Source: a virus
Taxonomy: Duplodnaviria > Caudoviricetes
Virus record (IMG/VR): IMGVR_UViG_3300022660_000065
Location: 1 to 64,000 of that record
DNA length: 64,000 nucleotides
Direction: 5' to 3' (one strand)
Both the position numbers and the translations under genes were made by a program. Below the pieces are notes generated by a model, which saw only the letters and a program-made list of their open reading frames with translations, was not told the origin of the DNA and made no database searches. Below are positions 7,100 through 35,023 of the stretch, piece by piece (positions within the stretch are counted from its first letter, which is position 1; the number at the start of each line of letters is the position of its first letter).

Positions 7100-7124
7100 G
7101 TATATAACATTTGGAGGAGATAAT

Positions 7125-7496
7125 ATGGATAAGAAATATATTGACTTTATTTGCTCTTTACATGGGTACATGATTCGTGTAAAAGAAATACATTGGAGTA
7201 CAGATAATAATGCGGAACATCTTCTTTGTGATGAAGTTGAAGAAGCAATTCATGACCTTGAAGACCGTTTCGCTGAATGTGCAATGGGTATTACTGGTAA
7301 AAAAGTTAAAGTAGGTGACTTAAAACCTATGCTTCCCCATGCAACTAAGTTAAAAGACATGCTTAAGGAACTTGCTGACGAAACCATGGATATGAAAGAT
7401 AATTTCGATGGCTATCAGTATAGTGGTTTAGAGAATATCTGCGATGACATTATGGAAATGTGTGGAAAATACATGTATAGAACAACACAACGATAG
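7125..7496 (+). CDS. ferritin/Dps-like four-helix protein
   Basis: KEIHW...EHLLCDE...DRFAE pattern resembling Dps ferroxidase helices. Confidence 0.6.
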   Translation: MDKKYIDFICSLHGYMIRVKEIHWSTDNNAEHLLCDEVEEAIHDLEDRFAECAMGITGKKVKVGDLKPMLPHATKLKDMLKELADETMDMKDNFDGYQYSGLENICDDIMEMCGKYMYRTTQR

Positions 7497-8140
7497 TAAT
7501 GAAACTGAATTATAATGACATACGATATATAATTAATGAGACTACAAAGTGAATTATTGAAGGTGCTGAGTGGTCTCAAGGTCTTGCATGGGGTGGTGGT
7601 ACACGTGGCCGTAAAAACACAGCAAATCTCCACATCAACCAAGATAAAACTGACAAGGGCAATATCAGTGGTGATATGAATGCAGATACTCGTATGTTTG
7701 GTTCCAAAAATGATATATTATATGGTGATGGAACCATGAACAAAAATTATATGCCGTTAGCTCAAAGAGCAGGTCATTATAATTCTTTGAATAATTTTTA
7801 TCAACAAGTATTAGACTATTGCAACGGTAAAATACAATTATCCGATATTGATTTCCAAAATGCCCCATCTATACAAAGCAAAAATATACAAGAACTTATA
7901 AATAACGGGGTATCAACTGAAGACCTTAAAACTGAAATTTTAAGCCGCATATCACGTGATAATATGGATTCCACTGTAAAACAAATGACGTATAATAGAG
8001 TTCAACAAACAGCGAATCCTGAAAAAGTAAAACGTTATAATACAGGGATTGTTCCCGGCACTAACGTTAAGTTTATTGCATTATACACGATTAATGATTT
8101 TAACTTTAACGATGCAATCAAGCATGGTAAATTAAGGCCA

Positions 8141-8148
8141 AATAATAA
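8141..8148. repeat. 8-bp target site duplication, left (AATAATAA)
   Basis: Identical to 10426-10433. Confidence 0.92.
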
Positions 8149-8176
8149 GGGAACGATATACATGTTTACACTAAAA
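8149..8176 (+). repeat. left terminal inverted repeat
   Basis: GGGAACGATATACATGTTTACACTAAAA. Confidence 0.92.
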
Positions 8177-8192
8177 ATAGCGTAAATAACTG

Positions 8193-8222
8193 AAGTCCAG
8201 TCGAAAAAGACTGGACTTTTTG
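8193..8222 (+). terminator. intrinsic terminator inside IS left end
   Basis: AAGTCCAGTC-gaaaaa-GACTGGACTT followed by a T run; would block read-through into the transposase. Confidence 0.7.
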
Positions 8223-8279
8223 GTAACAACGGGTTAGATTATTGGTATATACTAATAACGAACTTAACCCGTTTGATAT

Positions 8280-9227
8280 ATGAAACTTCAGTTAGCACAT
8301 TTCAACTCACTCATTTCCCTCGTTACTTACTTCAACAACGACAAGCGTTGTCGTGATTTCATTACCGAACAGCGTTGGGGCGGCAATGTGACTTGCCCGT
8401 TCTGTGGATGCACCCATACTTACGTATGCTCCAACGGTGACAATCAGTTCAAGTGTGCAGATTGCAAGAAGCGTTTCTCTTGCCTCGTGGGTACAATCTT
8501 CCACAATACCAAATTGCCACTTCAGAAGTGGTTTATGGCAATGTACCTTATCTCATCACATAAGAAGGGTATCTCATCACACCAGTTGTCTCGTGACCTT
8601 GATGTGACACAGAAAACAGCGTGGTTTATTCTTCATAAGGTACGTACACTCTTTGCTCAGTACGATACTCCTGCTCTTGAGGGTGAGATTGAGTTAGATG
8701 AAATGTACCTTGGCGGTAGAGAGGCTAACAAACATCAGTCAAAGAAGACTGAAGGTACACAGGGACGTTCCACTAAAACGAAGACTCCAATCTTCGGTAT
8801 GGTTCAGCGTGACGGACTCGTTCACGCTCTTAAAGTGTCTGATACCAAGACATCAACCTTGCTCCCTATCATCAAGCAGTTCTGTGCTGAGAACTCTCAT
8901 TTCTTTACAGATGAGTTGAATTCGTACTCTTGCCTTGACAGAGCAGGAATCTCACATAGTGTTATTGAGCACGGCAAGAAGGAGTTCTCAAAGGATGGTA
9001 TCACTACCAATAGCATTGAGGGATTTTGGGGACACTTCAAGCGTATGGTTTTCGGTACATATCATTTCGTTAGCAAGGATTACCTTCAGCGTTATCTTGA
9101 TGAAGCGGTTTACCGCTATAATACACGAAAAGCGGACGAATCCGCCCGCTTTGCTGATATGTTTTGTAAGTCAATAGGTATCGTATCCTATGACGATGTG
9201 AAGATTACATCTATTGCTGTTGCATAG
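8280..9227 (+). CDS. IS1595-family DDE transposase
   Basis: Zinc ribbon CPFCG...CADC, HTH, ELDEMYLGG, FTDELNSY, TNSIEGFWGHFKR. Confidence 0.95.
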   Translation: MKLQLAHFNSLISLVTYFNNDKRCRDFITEQRWGGNVTCPFCGCTHTYVCSNGDNQFKCADCKKRFSCLVGTIFHNTKLPLQKWFMAMYLISSHKKGISSHQLSRDLDVTQKTAWFILHKVRTLFAQYDTPALEGEIELDEMYLGGREANKHQSKKTEGTQGRSTKTKTPIFGMVQRDGLVHALKVSDTKTSTLLPIIKQFCAENSHFFTDELNSYSCLDRAGISHSVIEHGKKEFSKDGITTNSIEGFWGHFKRMVFGTYHFVSKDYLQRYLDEAVYRYNTRKADESARFADMFCKSIGIVSYDDVKITSIAVA

Positions 9228-9963
9228 TTTGTTGATTCTTTTGCTGAATGGTTTGTAACCATTGATTACACAAATTTCGACCAATATTTAACACTTGCTG
9301 AACTGCGTTTCCCGTATTGTATTCAAACGTTTTATTGTACTGTGTTGACGAGGTAATATTAATTGTGCAAATACTATTACCGTTTGTTGTAAATGTGGCA
9401 TCACATGTAAATCCGTTACCATAGAACATATTCAATGTACATTCTATTTGTTTTCCTCTTGAATTATTAAGAATGGAATGTAATTGAGAAATTGCTTGTT
9501 GATTCACACGACTATTCGTTTTTAAGTCAACTCTATATTGTTGCCCCATACTCTCATTCAATACTCGTTTTACAGATTCTGTAATGACTTGTTTGAGTTC
9601 AGATTCTGAGATTCTAATCTTTTGTGGTCGCTTTGATTCGAATTGTACAGGACTACCATTACTTGCAGATGACACCCAATTGGAATTTGTATTCTTAGTT
9701 GTTATTTTCTTAGGAGCAACATTATCTGTAGTTATATTGACTCTCATTTGCGAGGTGTTATGAAGGTTTTTGTTAATCATATCTGAAACCATCTGAAAAA
9801 CTTCTTCCAAATCGCCATCTGTTATCACCCCACCGCCATTCTGTACGGTTCTAAGATGATTCTTCATATATGATGTAATCTGAGAAAATGAAGATGCTAT
9901 ATTAGCGTAAGCACCAGATAACATTTCTTCTTGCTCACTCCATTGTACCCTATTTCTTGCCAT
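9211..9963 (-). CDS. IS passenger protein with internal leader motif
   Basis: 250 aa; residues about 115-137 KIRISESELKQVITESVKRVLNE; GATATTTATA motif upstream (9997-10006). Confidence 0.8.
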   Translation of the reverse strand: MARNRVQWSEQEEMLSGAYANIASSFSQITSYMKNHLRTVQNGGGVITDGDLEEVFQMVSDMINKNLHNTSQMRVNITTDNVAPKKITTKNTNSNWVSSASNGSPVQFESKRPQKIRISESELKQVITESVKRVLNESMGQQYRVDLKTNSRVNQQAISQLHSILNNSRGKQIECTLNMFYGNGFTCDATFTTNGNSICTINITSSTQYNKTFEYNTGNAVQQVLNIGRNLCNQWLQTIQQKNQQTMQQQ

Positions 9964-10050
9964 ATCGTATTTGTTTTAAATTCACATTATTTCCTATATA
10001 AATATCTCGTAATTAGAAAAAAACATTAAATTCGCACAAATTCACACGCT

Positions 10051-10374
10051 ATGAAGTACGAAATATGCCTTAACGAATCAACTAACATAAGATTCCACGA
10101 AATTTGCAGACATTTACTAACAAATGATGCTTTAGAAATAACAAATATTGTTCTAACAAAGCATAGTAATTTTTGGGAAGCAACAGAATATATCCTTGAT
10201 TCAACATCAGTTAGTCGTATCACCAAAGTGCAAATTGTAACTTGCTTCTTGTATGCTGGTGGTAATGTGAAATTCAATGGGCAATTCTATAAGACATCAC
10301 AAGAGTATTCCTTTTGGAAATACTTGCTTGAGCACCAATTTATTTCAGAAGACGAGTACTATAGTTTAAAATAA
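10051..10374 (+). CDS. second IS passenger, hypothetical
   Basis: 107-aa ORF inside the TIRs, followed by a hairpin at 10375-10401. Confidence 0.65.
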   Translation: MKYEICLNESTNIRFHEICRHLLTNDALEITNIVLTKHSNFWEATEYILDSTSVSRITKVQIVTCFLYAGGNVKFNGQFYKTSQEYSFWKYLLEHQFISEDEYYSLK

Positions 10375-10397
10375 AAAACGCACTCAAAATGAATGCG

Positions 10398-10425
10398 TTT
10401 TAGTGTAAACAGGTATATCGTTCCC
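10398..10425 (-). repeat. right terminal inverted repeat
   Basis: Reverse complement GGGAACGATATACCTGTTTACACTAAAA, 27/28 identical to left TIR. Confidence 0.92.
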
Positions 10426-10433
10426 AATAATAA
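10426..10433. repeat. 8-bp target site duplication, right (AATAATAA)
   Basis: Identical to 8141-8148. Confidence 0.92.
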
Positions 10434-11513
10434 AGTTAAAGATAATACAGGATTAGAGGGTAAAAGAGGAAGTCATATTCCCGTTTCATATGATAATAAC
10501 AGTATCATTGCTGATGTTGAAAGCAACTTTTCATTAAAAGATGTAAGACCTCAGCACTACAAATCTCAATATAATTTAGGTGATAAAGAAGCATACACAT
10601 CCGTTCATCAATTTATTGATAAATCTGTAATGTATGCAGCCTCATCATTAAAAGATGAGAGTTTCATCCCTGATTATATTATCGCCCCACCATCATCTTC
10701 CAACTTCAATAGATATTATTGCATAAATCTAAGCCGTAAACTTGGGTGTGAGTTTGTTGATAATTTCTTTAAGAAAGGACTTTTCCGAGTTAAAGTTATG
10801 GGAGGTCAAGGTACTGAAATCATGAAGAAACATGGTTTTACTGATGAAAGCATTTTTAAATTTGAACAAAAGGTTAAAAATAGTGTTTTCCAGCAAATAT
10901 CATATGACATTCGTAAACCTATTGAACAATTTGTCACAAAATCTATATACACCAAAGCAATAGAAAATGCAATTTTAACTTACCCCCAATTAAAAAAGAA
11001 AACATATGAAGATGTTGTTGATATGATAATTGACGACATTCTCCATGTTTCGATTGATTATATTAAAGACAGGAGGATTGCACAAAATATTATCAATAAG
11101 GCCCTTGAAACTTATGATTATAAGGGAATGTTAGGTATTATTAAAAACCAACGTAATCGAAGAGATATACAAAAAGTTTGTATGACAGTTGCTAAACTGC
11201 TTGAATATTATTCTCAAACTCTAATTGATAGAGGTGGATTTAAGTTAAGGGATGTCCGTGGTGCTAAAATTACAGATTTTGAAAAACGTGAACGTGATTT
11301 CCTCGATGATTGTTATGTTGTTGCTGATAAAGAACTTTCCCAGAAAGGAGGATTGCTTTCAAGATATAAAAATAAAAATATCCTCATTTTTGATGAGGAT
11401 ATAAATAGCGGAGGTACTCTCCGTATGGCAATTAATGCACTTTCAGAACAGACAGGAGACCCGTCTAACAAAGGCGTTATGTGTCTTTGTAATGCTTATT
11501 CAAAAGCGGGATA

Positions 11514-12134
11514 TTAGGAAAATGCTCTCATAACAGTTTTTCCACTGTTAAACAAGCCTTCATATACATACCCTTCAACATATGAAGGGTATTTTTCATA
11601 TTCAAAATCTTCGTCATCAAATACAAAATCAATTTTTATTGTATAAACGTCCCCACATATGTTTCTCGTCTCTTCAATGATATTTTTAAGAATTAAATCA
11701 TTAACCCTATAATCAATTTCTTCATATCCATAATTTTCTACATCTATTGAAACTCTAACTTTCACTTTTTCCCACAAAATATCATCGGATTCTATGAAAG
11801 AACATAAATCTTTTCTAAAATCTATTTCATTATACCAATCAATAAACTTTTTTTCACTAAATTCTTCTTTAGTCATTTCAAGACCAATCGGGCTATCATA
11901 TATCGTTTTATATTCTAATTTAATAAGATAATAATCCTCGTAATTATTTTTCTCCATTTCAAGTAGGAAATTTTCTCTATCCACTATATTAAAACCACTA
12001 TCATTAATAAGTTTATTTGATAGGAGTTTCATGTCCTGTTGTGCTATATCCAAGTCAATATAAGGATATGTATTAACAACTAAACCATCAGTGTCATTTT
12101 CCCTTGTTACTGTAAGAATCCAAATTTTATCCAT
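11514..12134 (-). CDS. hypothetical protein
   Basis: 206-aa ATG ORF. Confidence 0.7.
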   Translation of the reverse strand: MDKIWILTVTRENDTDGLVVNTYPYIDLDIAQQDMKLLSNKLINDSGFNIVDRENFLLEMEKNNYEDYYLIKLEYKTIYDSPIGLEMTKEEFSEKKFIDWYNEIDFRKDLCSFIESDDILWEKVKVRVSIDVENYGYEEIDYRVNDLILKNIIEETRNICGDVYTIKIDFVFDDEDFEYEKYPSYVEGYVYEGLFNSGKTVMRAFS

Positions 12135-27867: not shown

Positions 27868-28596
27868 ATGTTGAAATCAAATCTTACTGAGATAACAAAA
27901 AATAAAGTTGGAACCGGTCTTCTTTTGGAAAACGATGGCTACATTTCAATGTCTGAAGGAGAGAATAAAAAACTATTCGAATCTGTTAAGAAGATAAATG
28001 AGGGACTTAATGACGGTGAGTTTTACTGCCCTTATCCTTTTGTCGTACATGCTGTGTTCCAAAAATTTGGTATTGAAAACGCTAACGGGCGTATATATCC
28101 GGAAGATGTACTTAAAAAGCAAGTGGCGATATATCAGCAAAAGATAAACGAGAAACGCGCTTATGGGGAAACAAATCATCCGGATTCAAGAACATCAGTA
28201 AATCTTGACCTTGTTTCAATGAATATCCTTGAACTTCATTGGGAAGGACAGACACTTGTCGGACAACTTGAAGTAATCACAACACCGGGTTTTAGAAAGT
28301 ATGGTATCGCAAGTTCAACAGGAGACCTTACAGCAAATTTACTTCTTCAGGGCCTTAAAATAGGCGTGTCTTCAAGAGGTGTTGGTTCTGTTGAACATAA
28401 ATTTGGAAAGTACATAGTGGGGGACGATTATGAAATCATTTGTTGGGATTATGTTAGTGACCCAAGCACCAGAAATGCATGGGTTGACATCGAAAAAGAA
28501 AAATTAACCCCATATCTTGAAAATACGGAAAATAAAAAACCAATTCTTTCAGAGAATACAAAATTGGATAAATTTAGTAAATGGTTGAATGATTAA
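27868..28596 (+). CDS. prohead protease (T4 gp21-like)
   Basis: NANGRIYP, GETNHP, GVSSRGVGS, WDYVSDPS. Confidence 0.9.
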   Translation: MLKSNLTEITKNKVGTGLLLENDGYISMSEGENKKLFESVKKINEGLNDGEFYCPYPFVVHAVFQKFGIENANGRIYPEDVLKKQVAIYQQKINEKRAYGETNHPDSRTSVNLDLVSMNILELHWEGQTLVGQLEVITTPGFRKYGIASSTGDLTANLLLQGLKIGVSSRGVGSVEHKFGKYIVGDDYEIICWDYVSDPSTRNAWVDIEKEKLTPYLENTENKKPILSENTKLDKFSKWLND

Positions 28597-28696: not shown

Positions 28697-30109
28697 ATGA
28701 GTACAACTAATAAAAATAACAAAAAGACAGTTTCAGAGGCTCTCCTTGAAATGGATAAGGTGTCCAAAGCCCTCAAGGAAGAAAGCAAGGCTACTCTGTC
28801 TTCACTTCTCTCAGAGGCAATCAAAGAATATCTTAATGAAGAGATTGGTGCTGATGATGAGGAAGAGAAGGATGATGAATATTCAATCGAAGATGACGCT
28901 GCTGAGAATGAGAATGATGCTGACGAAACCACAGTAGATGATGAGGGTGCTGAAGAGGAAATACCTGCTGAGGAACCTGAGGCTAATGCTGAGGACCTGA
29001 ATGAACCTGAGGAAGGTGATGGTGAAGAATGGTCAGGACTTGACGACTTCAAAGTAGATGATGAAACATACGATTTGACTACCGGCGAGAAAGGCGATGA
29101 AACACTCGTAAAGGTTTATAAACTCCTTAAGGATACAGACCAAGTAGTTGTCAAACAAGAGGGTGACAGCGTATCATTGAAGGATAATGAAACTGGTGCT
29201 GAGTATGTCATAAAGACCGGATGCGAAGAAGAGGCTCCTGTCGCTGAAGAAAACGAATTTGAGTTTGAATTTGATGACGAGGAAGAGACTCCTGAAGCAG
29301 AAGGCGAATTTAATAACGACGAAGAAGACGAAAAAGTAATGGAAGGAAAAGAAATGGTATACGAGATTGACCTCGGATACACAGACAACTACCAAGATAA
29401 GGACCCAATTCAAGGACTTAGCAACAACGAGCCTTCTAAGTCGGGAAAATCTTGGCACAAAGGCGTTCCAACAGGAACTGAAAAACCTTGGGCTTCTAAA
29501 GGTGATGATGCACCGTTTGAGGAAAAAGCCGCATGTAATGAAGAGGAATTGCTCACCGACATCGCTGCAGATGATATTGCAAGCGGAGAGGAGATGCCTG
29601 TAGAGGAAGGAACTAATGTAACCCTCCCTAACAGAAGAAAAAAAAGCAAGAGCCATTCAATGCAGCAGAAGGATTATCCAAAGGTTGCACATCATGATTC
29701 ACAGAACGGAGACTATAAGGCTCTTGAGGAAATGGTGAAGAAACTTCAGAAGGAAAACAAGGAAATGAAGGCTATGATTCCTCAGATTAAGAAAGCGATG
29801 AATGAAAGTGTTCTTGTTAACTACAAACTTGGACGAATCGTTAAACTTATTTCTGAGAACGCAACAACAAGAAAAGAAAAGATTGATATCATCAATCGTT
29901 TCAATGAAAATGCTAAATCAATCAGCGAAACAAAGAGCCTCTACGAATCAATCAAGAGAGAACTTAACGCTTCAGCAAATTCAAAGAAACCTGTTCTTGA
30001 AAACAACGGAATCAAGGCTGAAAAACCACAGGTCGTTGAAACAACAGTATATCAGTCGAACGACCTTAAGGAAATGCTTGACTTCATGAAGAGAATGGAG
30101 AAATGCTAA
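28697..30109 (+). CDS. prohead core/scaffold protein (gp22-like position)
   Basis: Acidic middle, C-terminal coiled coil; between protease and capsid genes. Confidence 0.7.
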   Translation: MSTTNKNNKKTVSEALLEMDKVSKALKEESKATLSSLLSEAIKEYLNEEIGADDEEEKDDEYSIEDDAAENENDADETTVDDEGAEEEIPAEEPEANAEDLNEPEEGDGEEWSGLDDFKVDDETYDLTTGEKGDETLVKVYKLLKDTDQVVVKQEGDSVSLKDNETGAEYVIKTGCEEEAPVAEENEFEFEFDDEEETPEAEGEFNNDEEDEKVMEGKEMVYEIDLGYTDNYQDKDPIQGLSNNEPSKSGKSWHKGVPTGTEKPWASKGDDAPFEEKAACNEEELLTDIAADDIASGEEMPVEEGTNVTLPNRRKKSKSHSMQQKDYPKVAHHDSQNGDYKALEEMVKKLQKENKEMKAMIPQIKKAMNESVLVNYKLGRIVKLISENATTRKEKIDIINRFNENAKSISETKSLYESIKRELNASANSKKPVLENNGIKAEKPQVVETTVYQSNDLKEMLDFMKRMEKC

Positions 30110-32174: not shown

Positions 32175-34079
32175 ATGAGAGAATTTACCAATGAAGAAAT
32201 AACTTCAATAATTGAAGATTATTCTAACAAAATTAGCACTGTTAAAATTTCTAAAAAGTTTAGAACATCACCACAAAAAATAAAAAACATATTAATGGAT
32301 AACGGAATTGACATTCATGACCCATCTAAAACCGTAGGATTCACCCGTAAACCAAATAACTATTGGGAGAATAGGGATAATATATCCGAGGCTATGAAAA
32401 AATGTAAAACAAGAAGAGAGTTTTCACAAAAATATAGTCGTGCTTATTCTATTGCAAGAGAGAAAGGATGGTATGAAGAAATGGCAAATCTTTATTTTAA
32501 TAAAGAGGATTCATTTAACAATTATACTGCCAAAATTCATATGGTTTATGCTTATGAATTTAAAGAATTAAACCATGTTTATGTGGGGAGAACATTGGAT
32601 TTGAAGAGGAGACACCGTGAACATAGTAAAGATGAGAAAGATGGCGTTTTTAAATTTGCAAAAGATAATGGATGTAATATACCAAATGTTAGAATATTAG
32701 AAAAAGATTTAACAGCAGAAGAAAGTCAAATACAAGAAAATTTTTGGATTGAAGATTATTTAAGGCATAAATGGTTAATAATTAATAAATCATCAACAGG
32801 TATTAATAAAAGTTCATTGGGCGGTTCATTTAGAAAATGGAATTACGAAAAATGTAAGATAGCAGCCTCCAAATGCACAAGTAAAGAAGATTTTAAAAAT
32901 AAATTTGTTGGCGCATATAATATTTCACGAAAATATGGGTGGATTTATGATTTTTTCGATTTTAACTTAAAAAAAGAAAACGGTTGTTTTAATACATTTG
33001 AACAATGTATTAATGAAATCAAAAAATATAAAACTCTTGGGGGAATCAGAAAAAATTATCCATTTTTATATCATAAAATATGTAAAAACAAATGGAATGA
33101 TAAAGTTAGAGATATTTTGGGATATACCCCTAAACAGGTTTCAAAAAAAGTATATAAATTAAAAGATAAAGCAATAAAGGAAGAATATAAATTGTTGGAT
33201 GTAAATACAAAAAATCTAAGTAATAAAGAACTCATTTTTTATTATATGATATATGCCCCATCAGTCAATATTTACCCTAAAATTTTGAATATAAGCAAAT
33301 ATGGGGAAAAAACTATTTTTGTGATAGAAGATAAAAAAATCGCATTCGTTGTTATTGGTGTTAATAACTATAGAAACAAAAAAATAAATATTGAAAATAC
33401 ATACGGATATTCAGTACATGTTATATATGATTGTGAAATAAACCCCATGGATTTCAAATTAGAAAATAAAATTGATTCCATTTTAAACATTAGGCGAGAA
33501 CTTGGATGTATTACTTTAAATGCAAGAGATTGTAAAGTTGGAGAAATTTGTTCTCAATGCGCCAACGAATTTTTAAATACTAATCATATACAAGGTGAAT
33601 GTAGTTCCACAATTTATTTGGGTGCAACATATGATAACATTTTAGTTGGCGTCATGACTTTTAAGAATGGTTCTTTAACTAATAAAGGATGGGAGTTAAA
33701 TAGATTTGCAACAGATTTCCATTTTATAGTGAGAGGCTTGGGTAGTAAGATGTTTAAATATTTCATAAACCACTATAATGTTGATAGTGTAATATCATTT
33801 GCTGATAGAAGGTGGACATCTTCATTAAATAATGTTTACACCAAAATGGGGTTTGAATTCTGTCATATTACACCACCTTCATATAAATATCTATCCGTAG
33901 ATACATCTGACTCCAAATTGTATAATAAATTTGGGTTTAGGAAACAAACGTTACTTAGAAAACATCCCGGCTTTCTAACCCCTGAAATGACAGAAACGGA
34001 AATGGCTAAGAAACTTGGTTACGATAAAATATGGGATTGCGGACTCATAAAGTATATATGGAAAAAACCTGAGGAATAA
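32175..34079 (+). CDS. GIY-YIG-like endonuclease fused to a Hef/Mom-like GNAT-fold C-terminal domain
   Basis: VYAYEF...VYVGRT...RRHREH...E; C-terminal ELNRFA...GSKMFKYF...SFADRRW...YTKMGF...IWDCG; very AT-rich. Confidence 0.7.
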   Translation: MREFTNEEITSIIEDYSNKISTVKISKKFRTSPQKIKNILMDNGIDIHDPSKTVGFTRKPNNYWENRDNISEAMKKCKTRREFSQKYSRAYSIAREKGWYEEMANLYFNKEDSFNNYTAKIHMVYAYEFKELNHVYVGRTLDLKRRHREHSKDEKDGVFKFAKDNGCNIPNVRILEKDLTAEESQIQENFWIEDYLRHKWLIINKSSTGINKSSLGGSFRKWNYEKCKIAASKCTSKEDFKNKFVGAYNISRKYGWIYDFFDFNLKKENGCFNTFEQCINEIKKYKTLGGIRKNYPFLYHKICKNKWNDKVRDILGYTPKQVSKKVYKLKDKAIKEEYKLLDVNTKNLSNKELIFYYMIYAPSVNIYPKILNISKYGEKTIFVIEDKKIAFVVIGVNNYRNKKINIENTYGYSVHVIYDCEINPMDFKLENKIDSILNIRRELGCITLNARDCKVGEICSQCANEFLNTNHIQGECSSTIYLGATYDNILVGVMTFKNGSLTNKGWELNRFATDFHFIVRGLGSKMFKYFINHYNVDSVISFADRRWTSSLNNVYTKMGFEFCHITPPSYKYLSVDTSDSKLYNKFGFRKQTLLRKHPGFLTPEMTETEMAKKLGYDKIWDCGLIKYIWKKPEE

Positions 34080-34106: not shown

Positions 34107-34216
34107 ATACACGAAATCGTGAACAGAGTGAGCGTTTTGCTGATATGTTCTGTAAGTCCATCTGCATTGTATCCTATGCTGATGTAAAGGTAGTTAAACA
34201 GAGCATTGCTGCTTAA
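34107..34216 (+). pseudogene. 3' remnant of an IS1595-family transposase
   Basis: Translates TRNREQSERFADMFCKSICIVSYADVKVVKQSIAA*, colinear with TRKADESARFADMFCKSIGIVSYDDVKITSIAVA* encoded at 9121-9227. Confidence 0.9.
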
Positions 34217-34495
34217 TTACCATCGTTTGGAATCAATTTGCTTCATAAAATTTGAAAGGAATTGTCTGTATTTTAGGGACACATCACCAAGATTATCAAG
34301 TTGCTCTTGAGGGATAACATCCAAATAGTCGTTTATTAAATAACGTGTAATTCTATTAATTTCAGTTAATTCATTCTGTACACCAGTATTCCCCCATGGC
34401 ATATACTCTTCACTTTCTTTCAATACTTTCTTTACTGATTCAGAAATAACTTTTTTCAAGTCAGATTCTGTTAATCTTATTGTGTTTTTCTTCAT
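34217..34495 (-). CDS. leader-tagged small protein
   Basis: MKKNTIRLTESDLKKVISESVKKVLKE; stop abuts the transposase remnant stop. Confidence 0.8.
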   Translation of the reverse strand: MKKNTIRLTESDLKKVISESVKKVLKESEEYMPWGNTGVQNELTEINRITRYLINDYLDVIPQEQLDNLGDVSLKYRQFLSNFMKQIDSKRW

Positions 34496-34516
34496 ATTTC
34501 ACTATTTTCATATTTT

Positions 34517-35023
34517 TTATTGATGTCTTTCATTAAAATCTTGTTCGTCAGGAGTAAGATGCCTTTTCTTATAAGTATCCAAATCCCAATATCTATAATT
34601 ATCTAATGCATAATCTAATTTTTTCTCAATATCATCTGCAACTTCATCATGTGACCTACCCCCAAATGTTGAATTAAATTTGTCTTTCTCATGACCTTTC
34701 AAAGAAACCAACTGTTTCTTTTTTCTTTGAACATAAGTTTGCACTTCAGAAAAAAGATTTTTTATTTTTTGCGCAAGAATTGGACCTTGCGTGTTTTCAG
34801 GTTGTTCATCATCTTTATACCAATGTTCATATGCTTCACCTTTCAATGCCTGTTGCATTTTATTACATGCTTCTTCAAAATCGTACATGGCACCATCAAG
34901 CATATCAACTCTGTTATCAGATTTCTTTACGGCATCTTCTGCAGTTCCCCAAGAGATTTCGTTTAAAATCCTTTTTGTTGATTCGACCAATATGTAATTA
35001 AATTCTTTCTCAGCCAGTTTCAT
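34517..35023 (-). CDS. leader-tagged protein
   Basis: MKLAEKEFNYILVESTKRILNE; late motif 35046-35056. Confidence 0.8.
   Translation of the reverse strand: MKLAEKEFNYILVESTKRILNEISWGTAEDAVKKSDNRVDMLDGAMYDFEEACNKMQQALKGEAYEHWYKDDEQPENTQGPILAQKIKNLFSEVQTYVQRKKKQLVSLKGHEKDKFNSTFGGRSHDEVADDIEKKLDYALDNYRYWDLDTYKKRHLTPDEQDFNERHQ

Follow-up and report, generated by a model that had tools for sequence, protein, structure and literature searches.

The IS1595 family includes passenger-carrying elements known as 'transporter IS' (tIS), among them MTnSag1/tISSag10 and tISCpe8 (PMC5704250; Siguier et al., 2009, cited there). A second system that bears on this work is that of the T4 internal proteins IPI, IPII and IPIII, which carry capsid targeting sequences (CTS) with the gp21 cleavage pattern L/I-x-E and whose loci are variable in T-even phages (PMC9026906). 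Here, we analysed a 64,000-nt stretch of a viral record (the window, to which all coordinates refer unless a contig is named) and found an IS1595-family element within a phage gene. Few insertion sequences are known from the genomes of lytic phages, and the known passengers of IS1595 are resistance or mobilisation genes. Our literature searches turned up no publication that deals with IS1595 in phages of Bacteroidales, with the motif strings described below or with PDC-M24, and we found none describing IS1595 carriage of helix-tagged cargo between host and phage.

The element occupies 8149-10425 (2,277 bp) and is intact, with a 315-aa transposase and two passengers, p1 and p2. Its parts are:

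8141-8148, no strand: target-site duplication, left copy AATAATAA, identical to 10426-10433
8149-8176, plus strand: left terminal inverted repeat (IRL), GGGAACGATATACATGTTTACACTAAAA, complementary to the right one (IRR)
8193-8218, no strand: terminator-like hairpin with a 10-bp stem, just inside IRL
8280-9227, plus strand: intact IS1595-family DDE transposase, 315 aa (Pfam PF12762 and PF12760)
9211-9963, minus strand: passenger p1, ORF of 250 aa, convergent to the transposase gene
9553-9618, minus strand: 22-aa helix motif IRISESELKQVITESVKRVLNE with L-x-E at its end, p1 residues 116-137, from motif scans
9997-10006, minus strand: GATATTTATA box, 33 nt before the p1 ATG
10051-10374, plus strand: passenger p2, ORF of 107 aa without known family, divergent from p1
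10375-10401, no strand: terminator-like hairpin with a 12-bp stem, 3' of p2 and overlapping the start of IRR
10398-10425, minus strand: right terminal inverted repeat (IRR)
10426-10433, no strand: target-site duplication, right copy AATAATAA

The first-pass annotation had described a complete IS1595-family element with two passengers, 28-bp terminal inverted repeats (TIRs) and an enclosing target-site duplication (TSD), and the ORFs, Pfam matches and ends bore this out: IRL and IRR pair at 27/28 positions, with an A/C mismatch at position 14, and the same 8 bp stand at both borders. The transposase matched the full DDE_Tnp_IS1595 profile (PF12762; E = 3e-44, positions 2-153 of 153), and its residues 20-64 matched Zn_ribbon_IS1595 (PF12760; E = 8e-10). 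In addition, it retains every invariant column of alignment A1, in which the zinc-ribbon Cys/His columns are invariant, and the GGGAAC.ATATAC core of the ends, common to relatives in bacteria and phages, was kept in 52 relatives. The element is a complete 'transporter IS' of the IS1595 family with a DDE transposase, 28-bp ends and an AT-rich 8-bp duplication, and it is probably still mobile. It shares with the tIS the zinc-ribbon DDE transposase, ends of about 25-28 bp, the 8-bp duplication and the placing of passengers between the transposase gene and one end; p1 and p2 sit between the transposase gene and IRR, inside the inverted repeats, as do the passengers of L010, L012, L018 and other copies. 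Unlike the tIS, whose passengers are host-benefit genes (lincomycin resistance) or mobilisation functions, this family carries diverse unannotated small proteins with one helix and one upstream box, both shared with jumbo phages, and it has copies in lytic-type phage genomes, where stranded cargo persists. The element may also resemble the ISNwi1 and ISNwi1+ subgroups of IS1595 (ISfinder), whose ends begin GGnnAT.TAT-like and which have an 8-bp duplication and passenger-bearing derivatives. The last 17 nt of p1 overlap the 3' end of the transposase gene convergently, as had been noted at first pass. The GC content of the transposase gene, p1 and p2 is 44, 35 and 32%, respectively, and bacterial copies show the same pattern. 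The hairpin just inside IRL may insulate the transposase gene against transcription from outside; a similar hairpin is retained beside a transposase remnant in the related phage L127.

The insertion divides a phage gene into two parts:

7499-8148, plus strand: interrupted phage gene, 5' part, with leader-type N-terminus MKLNYNDIRYIINETTK and an in-frame TGA at 7553-7555 (translation)
10426-11517, plus strand: interrupted phage gene, 3' part, supported by homologs, with a weak phosphoribosyltransferase-like C-terminal motif (weak PF00156 match)

In-silico excision of the element and one duplication copy produced one open frame from 7676 to 11517, and both halves are colinear with one 579-aa protein (P0142) of a related phage. 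The 5' part aligned to residues 1-216 of P0142, and the 3' part was matched by 100 homologs, most of them 570-600 aa long, via their residues from about 210 to the end. A chance origin is excluded because excision restores a single frame and the halves align colinearly to P0142. Furthermore, P0142 adjoins S77 protease and Gp23 capsid genes in a related phage, and more than 40 diverse homologs of the target gene start with IxLTExQL...LxEG, an N-terminal leader in which LxE is followed by G. The element has split a conserved, leader-bearing gene of a T4-like jumbo phage from the herbivore gut. The empty site, which the first-pass annotation had proposed to look for in related phages, did not appear in a junction-pattern search of IMG/VR, and no contig of four sequencing runs spans it; the target gene as a query returned no close relatives from IMG/VR.

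Both passengers gave nothing reliable against Pfam, PHROGs, NCBIfam and PADLOC and no usable match in the ESM Atlas. In p1, a helical N-module (residues 1-70, low confidence) and a disordered linker precede the helix motif (116-137), and an alpha/beta C-module (140-250) follows, which alone is confident in the AF2 model (mean pLDDT 60). Foldseek found no match of p1 in BFVD at E <= 0.001, and VIA-align against 48,161 PDB chains found generic helical-hairpin matches only (best Z 7.2; C-module Z 6.0). Weak PADLOC matches linked p1 to PprPIWI (E = 3e-5) and the leader N-terminus of another gene of the window (34517-35023) to the candidate PDC-M24A (E = 3e-4). The cargo gene pool is very diverse, with about 33% GC, and the position of p2 is taken by unrelated genes in copies elsewhere. 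Cargo dN/dS was 0.06-0.16, and the cargo of bacterial copies is intact and under purifying selection. Relatives of p1 share one module and differ in the other, with the motif as the border, and in the syntenic relative L124 a 95% nucleotide identity breaks off exactly where the leader ends. The modules that flank the helix are exchanged by recombination. In Rhs and CDI toxin tips, a short conserved peptide likewise marks the border where unrelated N- or C-terminal modules swap; unlike those systems, the carrier here is an IS and not a large scaffold gene, and Pfam matched almost nothing in 79 cargo ORFs, with no toxin or immunity domains detected.

The helix motif is amphipathic and spans 22 aa, with L (34/39), x and E (37/39) at positions 20-22. 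The 39 instances draw on all six Leu codons and on both families of Ser codons, a pattern that points to selection at the protein level. A DNA-level recombination or binding site was ruled out because synonymous codons vary freely. The first-pass annotation had called the motif a leader of p1; it is present there but is internal (116-137 of 250), not N-terminal, and in some relatives, such as p1 of L010, it is C-terminal, which is not what a plain N-terminal leader would lead one to expect. The fossil cargo genes described below (34495, 35023) and P0133/P0134 have it at the N-terminus, and in jumbo phages it heads or joins many proteins. Among the best 80 bacterial loci, 43 had a motif ORF at most 2.5 kb from the transposase gene and none had one farther out; about one-third of bacterial copies lack a motif ORF at the threshold used. 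Scans of five whole bacterial genomes, about 14 Mb in total, gave four motif hits, each within about 0.5 kb downstream of a transposase gene of the clade. The 355-kb phage G001, which contains two such elements, has 15 motif hits, only 3 of them inside IS copies and 12 without an adjacent transposase.

The box of p1 was found as described at first pass (GATATTTATA on the minus strand, 10006-9997), and in motif and box scans both the p1 motif and the TATTTAT box turned up at many other genes of this phage. In the cargo pool, a TATTTAT box lies 15-25 nt before the ATG. In sense orientation and at fixed spacing, the box precedes 37/79 cargo ORFs of bacterial copies versus 11/189 flanking ORFs, and in the same form and spacing it precedes 27/85 ORFs of this phage, the head protease gene among them. 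Of ten phage genes that follow a box, PHROG annotation put a name to two, the protease and a homing endonuclease. The box 8-mer CTATTTAT overall was only about twofold more frequent than in mononucleotide shuffles, in cargo and phage; the signal lies in position and orientation, not in total count. The box could be a phage late-class promoter element, a reading to which we give somewhat less than an even chance. A canonical Bacteroides TAnnTTTG element immediately precedes the box in about eight cargo genes, so that the box could instead belong to the 5' UTR or act as an operator, and not be a phage promoter.

The transposase had 7,674 homologs at E <= 1e-30, and relatives of 94-60% identity are abundant in metagenomes. 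Species genomes dominated by Bacteroidales gave at least 477 transposase matches, of which the best 80 were nearly all from Bacteroidales; these 80 loci yielded 52 TIR pairs, 42 with a perfect 8-bp TSD, and a median length of 2,530 bp. Transposases of 77-92% identity, with the same ends and gene layout, occur in Bacteroidales chromosomes and genome bins. An 80%-identical copy (L012, 4877-7512) lies between ksgA/aspS and ppa/sufBD with the TSD TAAAAATT and flanks of 51% GC, and a Bacteroidales MAG holds a 77%-identical copy. The copies with 77-80% identical transposases are flanked by bacterial housekeeping genes and share the three-gene layout, the helix motif in the convergent passenger, the upstream box and the GC pattern. 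In nearly all members of the clade, the transposase gene is followed by 0.5-2.3 kb of cargo. Because phage contigs can be misassigned to MAG bins, the bacterial origin of some copies may be mistaken; that of L012, of the complete chromosome L050 and of the isolate L051 is secure. In the transposase tree, phage-borne members form three separate supported clades nested among bacterial ones. A blastn search of the IS against 50,697 phage records gave no match, and IMG/VR contained no exact TIR and no close relative of p1 or of the Thg1 neighbour of a further copy, L109. The clade of the element is large and resides mainly in Bacteroidales chromosomes.

Elsewhere in the window, the remains of a second insertion and a head gene were recognised:

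27868-28593, plus strand: T4 gp21-type head maturation protease, preceded by a TATTTAT box (PF03420, 67 bits, over the cut-off)
34109-34216, plus strand: fossil of a second related IS, the last 34 or so transposase codons (blastn 82%; tblastn)
34217-35023, minus strand: two leader-first genes (34217-34495 and 34517-35023) directly adjoining the fossil, placed as convergent cargo would be

The fossil corresponds to transposase residues 282-315 (tblastn, 62% identity, E = 6e-8). The two genes beside it gave the strongest motif matches in the genome, their layout is that of the intact IS and of L009, an IS copy with two tagged passengers, and they are presumed to be stranded cargo. In addition, L127 and L124 have transposase C-terminal remnants beside stand-alone leader genes, and we read these leader-tagged genes of related phages as fossil cargo. 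Such genes beside decayed copies argue that the family does move them in jumbo phages, which supports the first-pass proposal of cargo transfer there.

The head protease matched PHROG 207 (head maturation protease, E = 2e-39), PF03420 was over the cut-off in both G000 and G001, and the syntenic relative L120 encodes Gp23 (PF07068). A candidate for a prohead core or scaffold gene lies at 28697-30106. As with the T4 internal proteins, unrelated bodies stand behind a shared short leader ending in L/I-x-E, the phage has a gp21-type protease and, in L120, a Gp23-type capsid protein, and the bodies are poorly conserved between relatives, with homology stopping at the leader's end. Unlike the T4 CTS (about 10 residues, N-terminal), the helix has 22 residues, may be internal or C-terminal and is without sequence similarity to it; unlike the T4 internal protein genes, the cargo is IS-carried and occurs in host chromosomes. 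The LxE end of the helix and the gp21-type protease would fit capsid targeting, and by analogy with T4 the helix might be a capsid-targeting propeptide cut after L-x-E by that protease, which we put forward tentatively, as less likely than not.

We consider it likely that the element is a cargo IS that shuttles phage-style cassettes between a Bacteroidales host and T4-like jumbo phage. The IS clade would reside mainly in Bacteroidales and carry cargo with the GC content, box and helix of phage; it would insert into phage, where decay of the transposase would leave the leader-tagged gene behind, and the family would in this way shuttle and shuffle cassettes between host chromosomes and phage genomes. 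Cargo with phage hallmarks, module exchange and transposase decay together argue for a family that acts as shuttle and shuffler.

The first-pass annotation had instead proposed a phage-specialised transposon, adapted to the late programme and head packaging and moving virion cargo between jumbo phages or paying rent to its phage. Outside this phage, the exact p1/p2 pair was found only in contexts that are AT-rich, phage-like or unresolved, the cargo has the GC, box and helix of phage, fossil cargo is retained in phage genomes and G001 has two elements, all as that proposal would have it. However, layout, motif, box and GC pattern are found in bacterial copies too and were therefore not acquired as an adaptation in this phage; the clade, with its at least 477 matches in Bacteroidales-dominated genomes and the same ends, is overwhelmingly chromosomal, a partial census already suggests that independent insertions are mostly bacterial, with copies no less intact or recently mobile than those of phage, and the transposase tree puts the phage copies at three points within bacterial groups. 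Moreover, the element destroys a conserved phage gene here and does not add a function at a neutral site. Phage specificity thus does not hold, and a phage-specialised element is unlikely. Close copies lie, as the annotation had named as the contrary outcome, largely in bacterial chromosomes, although not with the same passenger, the modules differing between copies.

Shuttling by a mainly chromosomal family also has to be weighed against the cargo being a conflict module (defence, counter-defence or an addiction pair p1/p2) used by the bacterium or the element. In favour of this, the cargo of bacterial copies has stayed intact under purifying selection, with a box that phage also has and a helix found otherwise only in phage; it is extremely diverse, which is typical of conflict genes; p1 and p2 are a divergently transcribed pair; and the weak PDC-M24A match points the same way. 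Such a module could stay silent until a box-reading phage infects, whereupon the helix would draw the product into assembly as a 'Trojan horse'. The proposal is improbable: the cargo lacks a robust match among defence, toxin and antitoxin families, phage genomes themselves contain cargo of the same type, and some cargo genes also have the canonical host promoter element and may therefore be expressed constitutively. Least probable of all is an ordinary Bacteroidales IS that hopped accidentally into phage, with phage leader genes as leftovers of earlier insertions and with helix and box serving the element (the helix docking cargo to the transposase or regulating transposition, the box as its own promoter or operator), for, although the motif in bacteria is confined to the neighbourhood of the transposase, an HMM trained mostly on IS cargo has 3 of its 4 strongest hits in the 88-kb fragment of this phage at IS-associated genes and fossils show that cargo can be stranded, it conflicts with the 12/15 motif hits of the complete phage G001 that are not adjacent to a transposase, with a conserved gene family beside head genes whose more than 40 diverse members have an N-terminal leader, with the box before the head protease and other non-cargo phage genes, and with a cargo GC content that matches the phage and not the host or the transposase gene.

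Through dozens of independent insertions, one IS clade is linked to one uncharacterised peptide tag and one upstream box, which in bacteria occur essentially only inside the element and which T4-like jumbo phages from the same habitat commonly have. This link suggests a route by which giant phages may acquire small accessory proteins, some of them possibly ejected, and make them more diverse, and how phage-type genes may come to rest in host chromosomes, and the fossils would form a time series of cargo domestication in phage. A more far-reaching version, in which the IS1595 clade is a dedicated vehicle for virion-delivered effectors that are late-read, loaded into the head by a cleavable helix, moved between Bacteroidales chromosomes and phage genomes and reshuffled at the tag, seeding phage genes once the transposase decays, is doubtful. 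In a sharper variant, chromosomal copies may be armed only on infection, their products entering progeny heads as host sabotage or in the self-interest of the element. If the tag is unrelated to capsids, it would still be a strongly selected module and the mark of a vast hidden gene pool in gut Bacteroidales.

L010, L028 and L109, the closest relatives of this element, come from contigs that are short or of unresolved origin. In other samples, this IS was found at other sites with the same cargo, and in three of four sequencing runs only the IS was found, with various foreign flanks; contigs and cover from RNA libraries indicate presence of the IS only, not transcription. In the L109 copy, p2 is nearly identical, with one residue different. 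The surroundings of L109, which do not match G001, include DnaJ, Thg1 and IS607-type genes and a gene for a WG-repeat protein.

The IS1595-family element described in the first-pass annotation, with 27/28 matching terminal inverted repeats, a target-site duplication (TSD), a transposase gene and two passengers, is present in full at 8141-10433, and the convergent overlap and upstream motif reported for the passenger at 9211-9963 were likewise found. The features are as follows.

8141-8148 and 10426-10433: TSD, direct repeat AATAATAA, flanking both ends of the element
8149-10425: IS element, 2,277 bp, with 28-bp inverted repeats (27/28 matching)
8280-9227, plus strand: transposase gene, 315 aa, Pfam DDE_Tnp_IS1595 and IS1595 zinc-ribbon
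9211-9963, minus strand: passenger p1, 250 aa, convergent, its final 17 nt shared with the transposase gene
33 nt 5' of the p1 start: box GATATTTATA
10051-10374, plus strand: passenger p2, a 107-aa ORF
near each terminus, on the inner side: one hairpin

The transposase matched the entire DDE_Tnp_IS1595 profile (E 3e-44) as well as the zinc-ribbon (E 8e-10). Cargo-carrying IS1595 elements such as tISSag10/MTnSag1 and tISCpe8 are already known (PMC5704250), and by every feature tested the element is a member of this kind. The motif reported as a leader of p1 exists, but not at the N-terminus: it is an internal helix at residues 116-137. The C-module of p1 that follows was confident in the structure model and had no structural match.

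Transposases of 60-94% identity to that of the element were abundant in metagenomes. An 80%-identical relative, on a 153-kb contig, is bracketed by ksgA/aspS on one side and ppa/sufBD on the other; it has ends GGGAACGATATAT..., duplication TAAAAATT and flanks of 51% GC, and was also present at additional sites. In Bacteroidales MAGs a 77%-identical relative was found, with Fic, resolvase and GH43 genes as neighbours. When one genome of each prokaryote species was scanned, 477 matches were obtained, and the best 80 of these came nearly all from Prevotellaceae, Bacteroidaceae, Muribaculaceae, Paludibacteraceae and unclassified Bacteroidales of ruminant, horse and other guts. These 80 loci yielded 52 inverted-repeat pairs, 42 of them with a perfect 8-bp AT-rich TSD. 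Since the enclosed elements were between 1,570 and 3,478 bp long, with a median of 2,530 bp, nearly all of these copies carry cargo. Furthermore, the three phage-borne copies (the window copy, L005 and L006) fell into three separate well-supported groups of the transposase tree, and in each case the surrounding branches are copies found in bacterial bins. The element is not phage-specific, and a phage-specialised transposon is unlikely. The earlier interpretation is thus partly supported; what stands of it is an IS1595 cargo element whose cargo moves in jumbo phages. In one 91%-identical copy from a Bacteroidales MAG, an IS4-family transposase (DUF4372 and DDE_Tnp_1; L029:5525-6724) was inserted in the cargo region.

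The element also looks active, judging from its distribution. A different site (L109, L112, L113) was occupied by a copy that is 94% identical across 2,287 bp and has this pair of p1 and p2. Contigs from three independent runs, among them a 2015 bovine gut sample and a metatranscriptome library of bovine origin, covered 8143-10433 alone, ended at the repeats and had several distinct foreign flanks. In run X13, one DNA contig joined the transposase 3' end (9127) to the right repeat (10399), omitting 1,271 bp; it is a relative with different cargo or without cargo. In L108 (6787-8348) and L110, the transposase gene of the same IS was cut by an IS605-type OrfB/TnpB gene (431 aa), and an IS607-type resolvase and Cas12f-like TnpB pair lay 3 kb off; mobile elements are therefore nested in this AT-rich context.

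All close relatives have a common layout, in which a convergent p1 runs over the stop of the transposase gene and a divergent p2 is often present. Comparison of the passengers among copies, as the first-pass annotation had suggested, showed that layout and helix are common and that the protein bodies are mostly unrelated: among 79 cargo ORFs, just 8 pairs had at least 50% identity across at least 80% of their length, and almost none was named by Pfam. The 22-aa helix has the consensus I-[RK]-L-[TN]-E-S-[DQ]-L-x-x-[IV]-[IV]-K-E-S-V-[KN]-[KR]-[VI]-L-[NK]-E and is N-terminal, internal or C-terminal. It is selected as protein, because all synonymous codon families are used at the conserved Leu and Ser positions. 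In 43/80 bacterial loci a motif ORF was found no more than 2.5 kb away from the transposase gene, and none beyond that distance; five whole Bacteroidales genomes (~14 Mb) contained only 4 motif matches, each on the downstream side of a transposase gene that belongs to this clade, at ~0.5 kb or less. The complete related jumbo phage G001 (355 kb) had 15 matches, of which 12 have no transposase next to them, and the 88-kb fragment of the window phage had 7. C-terminal copies or variants of the helix in an endonuclease-like protein with repeated Zn-finger modules (L006:583-1626) and a WG-repeat protein (L109:7846-8391) mean that the tag is not limited to N-termini in phage proteins. The N-terminal 47 residues of the ORF at 34517-35023, helix included, weakly matched the PADLOC defence-candidate model PDC-M24A (E 3e-4), on which no literature was found.

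In bacterial copies, sense TATTTAT preceded 37/79 cargo ORFs, mostly at 15-23 nt from the ATG, and just 11/189 flanking ORFs. In the phage, the box has the same AAC/AGA-TATTTAT-A form and a similar distance to the start; it preceded 27/85 ORFs, among them that of the head protease. Several p2-type cargo genes of bacterial copies (L039, L048, L053, L063, L081) had a canonical Bacteroides TAnnTTTG element ~10 nt upstream of the box, which would thus lie at or just past the host transcription start; this hints at dual control, or at a 5'-UTR or operator role. GC was 44, 35 and 32% for transposase, p1 and p2 in bacterial copies, with flanks of 45-51%. Since bacterial copies carry the same low-GC passengers, low GC is not an adaptation made in the window phage; it agrees with the phage gene pool.

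The modules of these proteins are swapped at the helix. Among p1 relatives, the same N-module was joined to four other C-modules, a different N-module was joined to the same C-module, and 140-aa proteins consisted of the helix followed by the same C-module. A similar exchange was found in the syntenic phage relative L124, where L124:5553-5986 was 95% identical to window positions 7124-7557 through the target-gene leader and the identity stopped exactly at the leader end; beyond it, an unrelated 545-aa P-loop protein replaces the PRTase-like body. Phage genomes thus exchange cassettes at the leader as well.

In-silico removal of the element and one TSD copy restored a single frame at 7676-11517. 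The 3' half of this split gene, used as query in an exhaustive protein search, gave 100 relatives, most of 570-600 aa and most aligning from residue ~210 to their end. In the best, P0142 (579 aa), residues 60-216 aligned to the 5' half and residues 212-578 to the 3' half, and the P0142 gene adjoins the Peptidase_S77 head protease and Gp23 major capsid genes in a related phage. The true start is the ATG at 7499, which encodes a leader-type N-terminus resembling that of P0142. An in-frame TGA at 7553-7555, where P0142 has Arg, breaks the leader region (7499-7558), so that together with the IS insertion the gene is doubly disrupted; recoding of this TGA is unlikely, because other long ORFs are open under table 11. 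The empty site looked for in related phages was not found at the nucleotide level among IMG/VR relatives and sequencing-run contigs.

What the helix may do is suggested by phage T4, whose capsid targeting sequences are short propeptides that load unrelated internal proteins, the proteins themselves being poorly conserved between relatives (PMC9026906). The helix terminates in L-x-E, which is the T4 gp21 cleavage pattern (PMC9026906); phages of this group have genes for a gp21-type protease and for a Gp23-type capsid protein; and the target-gene family has over 40 diverse homologs that begin IxLTExQL...LxE, then G. From these features we reasonably infer that the helix may be a cleavable capsid-loading tag, although its internal and C-terminal positions misfit a simple leader.

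Cargo movement in jumbo phages, as first proposed, is supported by tagged genes beside transposase remnants in the window phage, L127 and L124. At 34109-34216, a related transposase is reduced to its last ~34 codons and abutted, in cargo position, by two leader-first genes. L127, a related phage contig, and L124 carry stand-alone 140-aa genes with C-terminal transposase remnants on the opposite strand just downstream (L127: 30 residues, 70% identical, E 3e-11; L124: degenerate, with a stop inside). By their arrangement, these fossils show what appears to be cargo delivered to, then stranded in, phage genomes. In addition, G001 contains a second, distant IS1595 element (transposase 41% identical) with two leader-first passengers. 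New relative to the searched literature are the cargo class, the finding that in bacteria it is linked exclusively to this IS clade, the finding that jumbo phages share it, module swapping at the tag and fossil cargo in phage genomes; the window supplies an independent, intact, gene-splitting copy and one fossil, along with cassette swaps in syntenic context and whole-genome controls.

The window belongs to an 88-kb IMG/VR record (CheckV completeness 25%), and runs containing this phage were animal faeces and bovine gut metagenomes. Because it encodes a gp21-type head protease and has genes in common with G001, a phage whose complete genome of 354,809 bp has terminal repeats, we call it a T4-like jumbo phage. 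Its head region seems to be a hotspot of selfish elements. A 634-aa GIY-YIG-type ORF (32175-34079) directly adjoins the IS fossil, a similar 634-aa gene is located after the capsid gene in L122, and the window ORF at 56818-57849 matches homing-endonuclease PHROGs.
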